From Eledone cirrhosa (lineage: Eukaryota): a DNA stretch of 64,000 nucleotides. The notes beneath the pieces were generated by a model, which did no database searches, had not been told where the DNA came from, and saw only the letters and a list, made by a program, of their open reading frames with translations. This document shows positions 13,016-56,029 of the stretch, one piece after another. Both the position numbers and the translations under genes were made by a program. How positions within the stretch are numbered: the first letter of the stretch is position 1; each line of letters begins with the position of its first letter. The DNA is taken from positions 246,264,001 to 246,328,000 of the forward strand of contig OZ024742.1 of the NCBI GenBank assembly GCA_964016885.1, read 5' to 3'.

Positions 13016-13306
13016 GCTATTATGTTTCCTCCCGTTGTATTGTATGCCTACGCCATCTTTATTCAGTCTGTTTATTTATATATATATATATATTCGTTAG
13101 TAGTGGGGTTCCTTCTTTCTCACACCTCATTCACGGCGTACGGTCTGTTTTTCTGACCGCTCATGAAATTCACCCAGCTTATGCTGAACGGATAACCATG
13201 TTGCTTGCTGTTTTCCGACCTTCGGTTTGCTTTTCCTTCTTGTTGTTTACTTGTCTCACTCACTTTACGCGATTCACTTGTCCCAATAGCTTATTTTAGT
13301 TATTGC

Positions 13307-13381
13307 TCGCACCAACCTGAGGTATCTGATTTTTAATGCGATGAAATACCAATGATGGTTGGCAAATCACTGATGAGGGAC
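13307..13381 (+). ncRNA. Candidate non-circularly permuted hammerhead ribozyme, copy A
   Basis: TCGCA-CCAACC-tga-GGTAT-C-TGATTT-ttaa-TGCGA-T-GAA-ATACC-aatgat-GGTTGG-c-AAATCA-CTGATGA-G. All core nucleotides are present and four helices can form. Confidence 0.7.
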
Positions 13382-13436
13382 TAATTTTATAATATGTAAC
13401 CCATGTGCAACCACGCAGTATTCCTCTTCCCTTGTT

Positions 13437-13483
<47 letters not shown>

Positions 13484-14491: not shown

Positions 14492-14538
<47 letters not shown>

Positions 14539-14606
14539 TGAAAAATGGCGTGCTGCGTTGTTGCGAATATGAATATATGAATGAAAATAGACCGAGAAAC
14601 AAGAAT

Positions 14607-14678
14607 GTCCATCATCAGTAGCCTGCTGATTATCATTGGTATTTCTTCGCATTAAAGACTAGATACCTAAAATCAGTG

Positions 14679-14681
<3 letters not shown>
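14607..14681 (-). ncRNA. Candidate non-circularly permuted hammerhead ribozyme, copy B (diverged)
   Basis: Minus strand reads TCGCA-CTGATT-tta-GGTAT-C-TAGTCT-ttaa-TGCGA-A-GAA-ATACC-aatgat-AATCAG-c-AGGCTA-CTGATGA-T, with compensatory changes relative to copy A. Confidence 0.7.
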
Positions 14682-14751
<70 letters not shown>

Positions 14752-14754
<3 letters not shown>

Positions 14755-30364: not shown

Positions 30365-31192
<828 letters not shown>

Positions 31193-31202
31193 TTTATATA
31201 TA

Positions 31203-31255
<53 letters not shown>

Positions 31256-31258
31256 TCT

Positions 31259-31309
<51 letters not shown>

Positions 31310-43645: not shown

Positions 43646-43729
<84 letters not shown>

Positions 43730-43731
<2 letters not shown>

Positions 43732-43826
43732 GGGAAGAAAGAGGAATACTGCGTGGTTGCACATGGGTTACATATTATAAAATTAGTCCCTCATCAGTGA
43801 TTTGCCAACCATCATTGGTATTTCAT

Positions 43827-43831
<5 letters not shown>
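43730..43831 (-). mobile_element. 5'-truncated copy C of the permuted-hammerhead element
   Basis: Essentially identical to 13336-13430. It begins at ATGCGATGAAATACC and is flanked by (TA)n. Confidence 0.85.
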
Positions 43832-48936: not shown

Positions 48937-50815
48937 GTTTAGTTGTTATTATCAAATATCAACCAAGATATAAAAAACGATAATCATATGCGATAATCAT
49001 AACATGTACATAATTGTTTCTACTTTAGGCACAAGGCCAGCAATTACCCAGTGCATTACTGGTACTTTATTTTATCGAGCCGTAAGGATGAAAGGCAAAG
49101 TCAACCTCGGCGGGATTTGAACTCAGATCGTAAAGGGACGTAACTATGCTGGAAAGCATGGCGTCCGACCCTCTACTGATACTGCCAAATGCAAATAGAT
49201 ATGCATTTTTTTAGTTTTGGGAAAAAAATGTAATTATTGGAAGGGCCATGTCCCCCCCCCCCCCAATTCCATCAACCCTGGGTGACCATGTCTTGTTAAT
49301 ACGGATCTGTATTTTGGTTTGGTTTCTATAGCTCGATGCCCTTCCTCACGCCAACCACGTTACAGTGTGGCATGGGTACTTTTATCATGACACGAAAACG
49401 ACCATCAAACAGGGCGGACTGGGTGCTTTTACGTGTTCCCAGCACAACCGTCTTACAGACATGATGGACTGGGTGCTTTGTTGTAGCACCAGATCACCAT
49501 ACATACATATATATATATATATTATATGTGTGTGTGTGTGTGTGTATGTATATATGTCGATATATGTGTGAGTGTATATACATATACATATATGTAAGTG
49601 TGTGTGGTTCACCAACACTAAGTAGGTTGTCATATCTATGACACAGCTGAAGAGTCCTTCCAACTCTTTCTTTCTTTGGCAAGATTTCTACAACTGGATG
49701 CCCTTTCTATCACCAACCATTTTGCAGTGTGTACTGCATGCATTTATTGTATAGTTCACTAACGCATGAAAGTTTGCCATGCCCCTCATAAAACTAAAAA
49801 TCTGCACAACCCAATTGGAATGGTTTCTACAGCGGGGTGCCCTTCCTATTGCCAACCACCTTATATGTTTATGCTGTAACAAAGTCCCTTTCATTACCAT
49901 ATCTCCAATGAGAGATACACTTTTACCTGTTCCAGCCAATTGATTGAGACTATACTTGGGCACTGCCATTGAAAAAAGAAAAGCCTCTTGAGTGTGTGGA
50001 GCCCCAGAATGATGAAATTGTTTAAGATGTCTATGTTCACTGAGTTCTGTAATTCGCATCAGTTCACATAGATAACTGTGCTCTTCATTGATGGACAAGT
50101 CAAGTGATCCCCGGTCTAGTATGTCTATGATTTTCAAATAAATTTTGAAAATAATCTAGAATTTGAAGGGATTTATTTATATAACTAACATTTTTATTAT
50201 TAAACTGGTGCAACATAACTCAACAAAGGTTCTTACATTAAATTATGAGAGAAGCTTTTTAGATAAATATAAATATTTTAAGCTAGACAGTCTTTTTTAT
50301 CATAGAACCAGAGGCAGTTTCGGGTGAGTTGGTATCAAAAGGGTTAAAACACTACCCAAGTTGAATTCTTAAGGGACCAAATTTAAAGGTTATACTGTTT
50401 TTTCCCTATTGAATGAGAAGGTTTGAATTTCATAAATAGTTTTATGGTGTCATGATAAAAACCTACCCAGCCCACTCTGTAAAGTGGTAATGTTGGTGCC
50501 ATGATATAATGTACCCAAACAGTAAAGTGGTAGTGGTAATGCCAAGACAAAATAAACCTGGTACATGCCATGAAGTAGTTAACCTTAGGAAGGGCATCTA
50601 GTTGTAGAAACCATGTCAAAATAGTACACATGAGCTAGACAATGTCATCTGGCCTGTCTAGCTGCAGAATGTGACAACCCTTCTAACCCATGGAAAGTAA
50701 ATGTAAAATGGCAATGATGAGTTCAACCTTTGCTAGACATTAAAAGATGGTGATTAAAATTTTTAATTTTGGTAATTGGAGTTGTATTTCATTTGATGTT
50801 TTATTCCTTTCCTAG

Positions 50816-51439
50816 AAAATAAACAAACAAACAATCTGATGGAGAAATTTTCCAAGAATACGAACAGTGCAATGAAAAATGTTCTGTCAAGAATGTCACA
50901 TAAACTCAGCAAATCTAAACAAGAAGATTTGAAAGTGAGGCTGCAGTATGGTTGCAAGTTAAACTGCCAGAAAGTATCGAGATCTAATACTGATATTGAA
51001 AGTGGTGACCAGCAGAAGTTGTGTGAGAATTGTGTCCATGAAGAACAGTTAAACAAATTCAATCAATGGTTTCCAAAACTAAGTGAAGAAAACAAACAAT
51101 ACTGCATCTTTGGATTTGTTCACCGTCTTTCTAGTCACATTGACATACTAAAGCATCTCTCCAGAATAATGGCCCCAACATTTAGAAAGGACTACATGTA
51201 TACTTGCTGTAGAGTCACAACTAATTTGGAGACTGATGAACCAGTCACGGGCCTTCAGCAAACTTTGCCTAGTAATTTCAGTAACAAACTCATTGGATCT
51301 ATTTTGAAATGCTATGATGACATGTCGACACGGAGCAAGCTAAAATTTCTAGTTGCTGTCCTTCAGTCTTGTAACATACAGCTCATCTACCTTGTCTACA
51401 ACTTTATCACAAACTTAGTGCAGGCTGACCACACTCACA
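50816..51439 (+). CDS. FBXW10: Exon of an FBXW10/CDRT1-like F-box/WD40 gene (N-terminal region)
   Basis: Acceptor TTCCTTTCCTAG, donor A|GTAAGG (phase 1), ATG at 50839. 'LCENCV....NQWF.....KQYCIFGFV...IM.PTFRKDYMY' resembles the recalled FBXW10/CDRT1 N-terminus (CETC...KEWF...RRFLVGIL...GKDFIY). Confidence 0.7.
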
Positions 51440-52010
51440 GTAAGGACTCTCATTTAATTTCTTTGTTTTATGTTGCTAACCTTAGTTCATAGAATGCTTT
51501 CTGCTATTTGTTTTGGCTCTAGGCTCTGAGTTCAAATTCCACCAAGGTTGACTTTGCCTTTTATCCTTTTGCAGTCTGTAAAAAAACTACCAGTACTGGG
51601 GCCTATTCTCTTTCTCTCCATGGGAAAAATTGGTTGTGTTTAGACTTGGAAAGGGGATGGGCTCTGCCAGGTTTTTAAAATGTACAAAACTTATATGTCA
51701 TGATGGGGCACCTATGAATCCATCAGGAGTTGTGGATCCATCCATACATATATAGTCCTAGTTCATCTCTGAGCCTGTAGGCTTATAATGCAAGGTGTTC
51801 TAATCATGCCCATTCTGACATAGTGTACCATTAATCAATGTATCTCTTGGGGTCAGATTTTAACCTGGTGAGGCCCTAAGCTATATGAAATTTGAGACCC
51901 TTCTCTAAAAAGATTCAGGTAAAAAAATTTAAATAATTATACATGCTTACAATTTTTTATATTAAGCTTAATGATAAAGAATAAAGAATATATATATATA
52001 TATATATATA

Positions 52011-55533: not shown

Positions 55534-55684
55534 TAGATCTGTACAATTTAGAATGACATTTACTAAACAACAACTGTATTTTACACATATATGTAAACAG
55601 TATGTTCCACCCATACATATGCAAACATGTGCATCTTCTCTCCATATCTTTATTCCTTATCTCTCTACATTGCTTTCATTACAG

Positions 55685-55974
55685 AGCTTGCCCTCAGTGA
55701 CACCAACCAAAATATCCCGGGGTCCAATGAGAACACAACTGAATGGTCTAATATTTTGGAAAGCTGCTCAAAGAGAGGGATAATCCTGCATCAATTTAAA
55801 GATATAATACATCATCTGCCTGCACCTTTAGCCAAGTATATCCTCAATATGTTAGATGAAGTCAGCTTACGTAATGCTCAAAAGGTCAGTCGAAAATGGT
55901 ACAGACTTGTAAAGCAGTTAATGAAGGAAATTATTCTGAGTCAACAAGTCATTGAAGAGGCTATACTTCTGCAG
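55685..55974 (+). CDS. FBXW10: F-box-encoding exon of the FBXW10/CDRT1-like gene
   Basis: Acceptor TTTCATTACAG (phase 1, compatible with the upstream exon) and donor CAG|GT. F-box 'DIIHHLPAPLAKYILNMLDEVSLRNAQKVSRKW'. No WD40 exons were seen in the window. Confidence 0.78.
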
Positions 55975-56029
55975 GTTACATCTATGTTACATATTATCCT
56001 CTGGAATGTGTCACGTCTGTGTCTTGTAG

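Follow-up and report, generated by a model that had tools for sequence, protein, structure and literature searches.

A putative 5′-truncated hammerhead core in S-G-C order near the 3′ end of a high-copy, probably retrozyme-like repeat of Eledone cirrhosa

What does a piece of DNA encode when its helices are kept while the letters that form them change? The question is raised by positions 14607..14681 (minus strand) of a 64,000-nucleotide stretch of the Eledone cirrhosa genome, hereafter the window. A preliminary description had recognised there a diverged second copy (copy B) of a paired motif present elsewhere in the window (copy A), and had read their conserved cores and covarying stems as selection on RNA structure across at least two subfamilies. 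The cores, the stems and the selection stand, the latter across many more than two families (in a tree of 27 aligned rows); what had gone unnamed are the permuted order of a hammerhead core, a four-way junction, a predicted kink-turn and the host elements. The listed helices are real, but the full motif is about 105 nt long and starts about 30 nt further 5′. The reading that we favour with good confidence, judging by the letters and their covariation, is that copy B is a 5′-truncated S-G-C hammerhead core near the 3′ end of a high-copy non-coding repeat, that it likely self-cleaves after C17, and that the repeat is likely retrozyme-like and moved by a Penelope-like reverse transcriptase.

All the motifs listed in the preliminary description were present on the minus strand at 14681-14607 and line up exactly with those of copy A (13307-13381, +). 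The two copies are identical at 57 of 75 bases without a gap. Eight of the 18 differences lie in the CCAACC/GGTTGG helix, where they make four two-sided changes, and seven lie in stem I, as three two-sided changes and one U-A to U-G wobble, which upholds the covariation proposed for both helices. Two more are positions 10.1 and 11.1, and the last, an unpaired TGA to TTA change, had been overlooked. All 23 proposed pairs are intact in both copies, and 18 random substitutions left all of them intact in 102 of 200,000 trials, a null that is soft because the structure came from these same two copies. The weak part of the earlier comparison is the “single stem II pair”, said to change from G-U to U-A. 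This change is present in copy B but is not a fixed compensatory change of family B, since position 10.1 varies (U 31, A 14, C 9 in 54 distinct family-B copies) opposite an invariant A.

The conserved blocks identify the core. GGUAU-C corresponds to block S of a hammerhead, GAAA to block G and CUGAUGA to block C, and we found CUGANGA, GAAA, a U-H cleavage triplet and stems I and III flanking it. The order of the blocks is S-G-C, which is not a circular permutation of hammerhead types I-III; the canonical types I, II and III (CGS, GSC, SCG) were rejected on this order and on the crossing of the stems. Neither a hammerhead nor any other Rfam family matches at the locus. The S-G-C order, U16.1, the short stem I-to-II linker and a helix that joins these two stems are those of type SGC, whereas block C is not uninterrupted: CUGAnGA is not followed by its own stem II strand, which comes from upstream. 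The putative ribozyme would work like the SGC type yet is a distinct variant. Hammerhead cleavage triplets follow the NUH rule, and N17 is C, A or U at the family level, G being as rare as the rule predicts (2 of 105 copies of families A and B, and one of the 27 rows). The pair 10.1-11.1, normally conserved, counts against an active core, being unpaired in 23 of 54 family-B copies. It is formed contiguously in 19 of the 27 rows (70%), and the partner comes from neither strand in three of the 27. In families E and H the upstream strand supplies the partner of 11.1, so that two strands likely exchange at a four-way junction after A9. De la Pena and Flores are said to have shown in 2001 that natural hammerheads tolerate an extra base at the step after A9.

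Read along the minus strand, copy B (14607..14681, without the upstream Pa strand and the hairpin) opens with the stem II 5′ strand TCGCA (14677..14681), which comes from upstream, is noncontiguous with CUGAUGA and has its partner at 14651-14647. The 5′ strand of the helix linking stems I and II, CTGATT (14671..14676; partner 14631-14626), is followed by TTA (14668..14670), the non-bulged strand of a predicted kink-turn, with U at 2n as in Kt-23, where family A has TGA. Block S, as read from the sequence, is the stem III strand GGTAT plus C17 (14662..14667), and the predicted cut lies at 14662/14661, by analogy with the legend of Fig. 1 in Eckert 2023 (PMC10085705). Beyond it come the stem I 5′ strand TAGTCT with a 4-nt linker to stem II (14652..14661), then block G, comprising the stem II 3′ strand, 11.1, GAAA and the stem III strand TACC (14638..14651), and, on the bulged side of the predicted kink-turn, three bulged nucleotides and then G-A-U (14632..14637). 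The segment 14606..14631 holds the linking-helix 3′ strand, the stem I 3′ strand, CUGAUGA, a variable base and GGACA, the Pa 3′ strand whose partner is absent. The 3′ tail of the family-B element (14536..14605) ends in (TA)n. On the other side copy B starts at stem II, its 5′ part of about 30 nt (the Pa partner GTCC and the hairpin) being replaced by a (TA)36 run, to which no strand applies, at the truncation point (14682..14753).

Copy A (13280..13382, plus strand) is a complete ribozyme of about 103 nt, with the Pa helix, hairpin, four-way junction and canonical kink-turn sequence; its predicted cut lies at 13326/13327 (+). It sits in a family-A element at 13093..13440 (+), itself 5′-truncated (the full unit is about 530 bp) and with (TA)n at both sides. 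Copy C (43725..43831, minus strand) is a family-A 3′ fragment without block S, flanked by (TA)n runs and more truncated than copy B, with the motif at 43831-43786. A profile search found only these three copies in the window. Elsewhere the window contains a degenerate 5.8S rRNA copy, probably a pseudogene (49964-50123, minus strand; Rfam 49 bits), exon-like ORFs of a host gene at 50797-51492 and 55597-55995 (plus strand), the second with an F-box domain, and a remnant of a Neptune-like Penelope-like element (PLE) endonuclease region (30839-31309, minus strand).

The full motif comprises six helices: Pa, hairpin Pb, stem II, the I-II linking helix, stem III and stem I. We parsed 140 distinct copies, of which 110 passed a pairing filter, and chose 27 rows by hand for intact 5′ parts and diversity. 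In these, 92.5% of the cells are paired and 26 of 35 pairs show two-sided changes, among them 3 of 5 in Pa (GGAC after CUGAUGA-N, paired with the upstream GTCC), all 6 in stem I (helix 6), and 3 of 5 in stem II (helix 3, TCGCA/TGCGA), which is invariant between A and B and covaries in other families. Slid registers, used as a control on the same rows, are 30-48% paired. None of 500 shuffles was as high on four of five measures and seven were on pair types, counts that are not probabilities because the rows are hand-chosen and related. Folding without pseudoknots does no better for copy B (75 nt) than for its shuffles (z −0.55) and predicts competing nested folds; as expected for a structure with pseudoknots, nested folding misses it. 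On the tree of the 27 rows, pairing was kept or restored in 45 of 52 pair changes on internal branches (25 of them two-sided) and in 37 of 79 changes on terminal branches. The source lineages are thus under selection while their copies decay. Further copies that break the helices had been proposed as what would speak against selection. Individual copies in the genome are indeed decaying, with 40 of 64 changed pairs broken in family B and 17 of 31 in family A, while the source lineages keep pairing; that criterion was mis-specified, since dead copies are expected to decay and selection is visible between source lineages.

Between stem III and the linking helix, the sequence fits a kink-turn, which we infer at this place. 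A 3-nt bulge is followed by GA in 90 of the first 100 matches listed, judged by eye, and the search pattern did not require GA. On the opposite strand, 13 of the 27 rows have NGA and family E has ATC, whereas family B and the majority of the G, H and J rows have NTA, with U at 2n. The canonical combination of a 3-nt bulge with G1b-A1n and A2b-G2n is confined to 13 of the 27 rows and is absent from family E, which counts against the proposed fold. Some family-E variants (L102, L104, L107, L118) have an insertion of 5-6 nt on the non-bulged side of the kink-turn position, which suggests that another bend may replace the kink-turn there.

The motif is abundant. In the 3.0 Gb of genome searched, the core pattern GAAAYRYC-N17-20-CTGANGA gave 26,183 matches, against 257 for a reversed control. 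Family searches produced 1257 family-B and 1629 family-A candidates, and two patterns excluding both of these returned 1462 (control 0) and 958 (control 98) matches in other families. The units that carry the ribozyme are non-coding and pyrimidine-rich, end in (TA)n and measure 528 bp in family A, 567 bp in B, 533 bp in C and 753 bp in E; the ribozyme is 15-75 nt away from their 3′ end. The units are often tandem, five in a row at one place, and family A has at least 40 copies that are 99-100% alike. Insertions are often 5′-truncated, and 11 of 29 distinct B loci have a divergent inverted copy. Craig et al. 2021 (PMC8557442) described partial tandems, inverted 5′ copies, 5′ truncation and (TA)n targets for Penelope-like elements, in the sections used here, and all four are found in these repeats. 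Like non-LTR retrozymes, the units are non-coding tandem repeats with one hammerhead each; the hammerhead is not of type I, its order being S-G-C. The monomer is not highly self-paired (z −1.11), unlike described retrozymes, which counts against this kinship. Three contig runs of one sample cover the unit, such contigs being silent on RNA ends, strand and level. Also seen in the genome were an old repeat family in S-G-C order with a stem I of 6-7 bp and an AT-rich stretch replacing stem II (L233, L235, L250 and related loci), and a frequent short MITE-like element with long inverted repeats beside (TA)n runs (L003, L004, L031, L255, L264).

Which autonomous elements carry the module? Naiads, a group of Penelope-like elements, are described by Craig et al. 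(PMC8557442) as having no canonical hammerheads, Ovul and Esco being flagged “HHR_half_core”. Read by eye, published octopus and squid Naiads nevertheless end in this fold: the consensus sequences Naiad_Ovul and Naiad_Obim have at their 3′ ends all six helices, the hairpin loop of our families A, C and D and a canonical kink-turn sequence, and the 3′ end of Naiad_Esco has the S-G-C order; no such motif was seen at the 3′ ends of Naiad_Omin, Naiad_Adux and Naiad-1_Skow, again by eye. A 6-letter word, in the 60 of 81 places that were read in published Naiads, revealed 7 places in S-G-C and 6 in C-S-G order, three of the latter in nematode families to judge from adjacent headers (all from PMC8557442, in part). 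In the E. cirrhosa genome a strict Naiad RT motif found 0 places and a looser one 18 (control 6), 8 of which are Naiad-like remnants by eye. A Naiad protein search gave 75 decayed matches, the longest open frame being 321 aa, and the ribozyme lay downstream of the remnants in 0 of 28 decayed loci. Two other families are young and intact: a Neptune-like one (30 loci, ORFs to 1217 aa), with a canonical-order core in its 3′ region, and a Penelope-like one (30 loci, 784 aa), with a type-I-order core and a long stem II insert; neither core is SGC, and both labels rest on the reading of a C-terminal GIY-YIG-like motif, as there was no Pfam match. A tblastn search of their proteins against the ribozyme loci found no consistent upstream ORF. 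In the Penelope-like family (L171-L200) the type-I-order core lies about 500-600 nt after the ORF and has a structured insertion of about 70 nt in stem II; relaxed descriptors might also miss a core of this kind.

The second carrier is a LINE with a restriction-like endonuclease (RLE), which may belong to the “HERO-like” clade. It came to light in a metagenome, where, in 6 of 64 parts scanned, 4 of 119 scored matches have the same fold, overlapping the stop of an ORF, and 115 do not. Relatives of this ORF have an RT and a zf-RVT domain, and a restriction-like endonuclease motif can be made out in them by eye; the domain layout of RLE-type elements is that given in PMC5678591, seen in part. Four metagenome contigs (L321, L333, L334, L389), probably animal, have the LINE stop in or beside hairpin Pb. 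In E. cirrhosa the RLE-LINE protein has at least 115 matches (150 of 1089 candidates scored), decayed among those scored, with a longest open frame of 363 aa. Eight of 30 loci have an intact SGC core with Pa, Pb, the upstream stem II strand and the linking helix, one of them without part of Pa, and four further loci of the same family, among these 30, have a damaged motif. The motif begins about 12 nt past the stop; its core is found about 80-100 nt beyond where the protein match ends and aligns in register with that of family A (nhmmer E 2e-6 to 6e-3). A second RLE-LINE family (L432, L439, L441, L447) has a related SGC motif about 350 nt after the ORF, with an 8-bp Pa and no obvious kink-turn.

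How would such an RNA work and spread? Stems I, II and III would form the usual hammerhead core, the 10.x strand of stem II arriving from upstream through the four-way junction inserted after A9. The kink would bend stem III back toward the far ends of stems I and II, where its extension, folded by the kink-turn, would meet them in a second junction, in place of a loop-loop contact. Cleavage after N17 is very probable. Read-through transcripts of tandem units would receive one cut per unit, and it is somewhat more likely than not that this yields monomers which are then re-ligated or circularised. The predicted cut site is continuous in genomic copies, so the template must have been uncut or re-joined; in this fold several helices would keep both products paired, which would favour re-ligation. 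A Penelope-like enzyme could nick (TA)n and start synthesis at AU-rich sites located 15-75 nt beyond the ribozyme; by going on around the template it could produce the tandem and inverted copies. The module may have originated at the 3′ end of an autonomous retrotransposon, a Naiad or an RLE LINE, both decayed in the loci seen, and may now depend on intact Neptune-like or Penelope-like elements that move it in trans. We somewhat prefer an intact Penelope-like enzyme as the putative mobiliser; the canonical-order cores of the two intact Penelope-like families examined, and the absence of the ribozyme downstream of the 28 Naiad remnants, count against it.

The main competitor accepts the ribozyme and has the repeats moved by the RLE-type LINE, as SINE-like mimics of its 3′ end; we consider it possible though unlikely. 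The LINE is the only autonomous element shown in this genome with the motif, its core is in register with that of family A, and several of its copies also end in (TA)n. However, by eye, its tail past the ribozyme is unlike the tails of families A-H, and the decayed state of the matches seen sits poorly with a family A whose copies are still nearly identical. Moreover, a partial tandem accompanied by an inverted 5′ copy is a published PLE pattern, and, by eye, the octopus Naiad consensus agrees with families A, C and D in its hairpin loop and kink-turn (both from the sections of PMC8557442 used here).

The remaining explanations concern the RNA itself. A hammerhead-derived 3′-end structure that no longer cleaves at a useful rate, and instead binds a reverse transcriptase or a host kink-turn protein, would account for genomic copies that cross the predicted cut, for the frequent unpairing of 10.1-11.1 and for the fact that a cut in the LINE would sever its priming end from the ORF. 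We find it improbable because the core letters are common to all the families, the LINE and the metagenome copies, though the patterns required most of them, and because N17 avoids G though no pattern constrained it. Slightly less probable still is ordinary connectivity with blocks acting only between tandem units or in trans, as a domain-swapped dimer like that of minimal PLE hammerheads. The units are indeed often tandem and dimeric cleavage is known for type I motifs (PMC6155905, in part), but all the partners lie within about 105 nt and none is palindromic, a 2-5-nt linker and the kink-turn would hold S near G, the LINE copies seen are single, and monomeric SGC constructs cleaved (PMC10085705, in part). 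We attach hardly any weight to a box C/D-like small RNA or to chance complementarity in a neutral repeat. CUGA and AUGAUG of copy A resemble boxes D and C, and there are weak Rfam C/D matches (E 1.7 and 5), far below the gathering scores; the covariation and the copy counts exclude chance.

A self-cleaving S-G-C hammerhead moved by a Penelope-like enzyme would invite a wider view, towards which we incline only slightly. Non-circularly permuted hammerheads would be a general, overlooked 3′-end module of animal retrotransposons. They would be the “missing” ribozymes of Naiads, of the SGC type in the families of cephalopods and cnidarians and of the CSG type in those of nematodes and others; they would have passed between Naiads and RLE-type LINEs, and in this genome they would drive retrozyme-like copies in the tens of thousands. 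The variant that combines a four-way junction with a kink-turn would be a hammerhead architecture of a new kind, and a host protein of the L7Ae family could control its cleavage; the soil-DNA CSG ribozymes of Eckert 2023 (PMC10085705) may be fragments of animal Naiads. If this is true, non-circular hammerheads gain a host, a setting at retrotransposon 3′ ends and a large natural covariation set. There would also be a testable answer to why Naiads, dominant in many invertebrate genomes, seem to be without hammerheads, and an entire class may escape ribozyme censuses of animal genomes that rely on descriptors.

The closest known system is type SGC. Eckert et al. (PMC10085705) were the first, in 2023, to show non-circular permutation in a natural RNA; their sequences were environmental, with neither host nor function known. 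In the sections of that paper used here, five SGC RNAs cleaved in vitro as monomeric constructs, the non-circular RNAs were only environmental, and genomes of known organisms gave one doubtful GCS candidate. The scrambled order had thus been reported only outside the genomes of known organisms, whereas tens of thousands of genomic copies are present here. The literature searched, outside subscription journals and Repbase, yielded no account of an SGC or CSG hammerhead from an animal genome or a transposon, and permutation is unmentioned in the portion used of a PK hammerhead structure paper (PMC11300833). HRIMA-1 and its variants (PMC10085705, in part) share with our motif the block order, the short linker, the I-II helix and the core letters; the linking helix of copy B (CTGATT) is analogous to their helix “I”. 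Unlike the “block C” assumption of that study, stem II is here noncontiguous with CUGAUGA, the RNA ends emerge from stem II, and stem III and the I-II helix are one duplex with a predicted kink-turn, a feature not named in the text of Eckert 2023 used here. Those authors flagged the SGC geometry as not obviously compatible; if our reading holds, the kink-turn and the four-way junction are a way to build this connectivity. Where the predicted kink-turn has the canonical sequence, a 3-nt bulge is followed by G-A and A-G, as in Kt-7 and Kt-23 (Schroeder and Lilley 2009, PMC2790904, in part). Family B would have the Kt-23-type A-U at 2b-2n, as read from its letters, whereas in family E the kink-turn sequence is eroded, unlike in Kt-7 or Kt-23.

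The host units likewise have known counterparts. With metazoan non-LTR retrozymes (Cervera and de la Pena 2020, PMC7229834; Li et al. 2026, bioRxiv 10.64898/2026.07.22.740005; both in part) they share non-coding tandem units with one hammerhead each, thousands of copies, low GC and a PLE-like insertion pattern; those retrozymes are, however, defined by type I hammerheads, whereas the units described here are 530-750 bp long, pyrimidine-rich and known as DNA repeats. With Naiads (PMC8557442, in part) they share the (TA)n targets, 5′ truncation, partial tandems and inverted 5′ copies, but Naiads encode GIY-YIG and RT and the repeats have no ORF. Finally, the ribozymes reviewed in non-LTR elements are mostly 5′ and HDV-like (PMC6765202, in part), as in R2 and L1Tc. 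The RLE-type LINE has in common with these two a self-cleaving-type motif at an element end, and differs from them in that the motif is a permuted hammerhead at the 3′ end, after the stop of the ORF.
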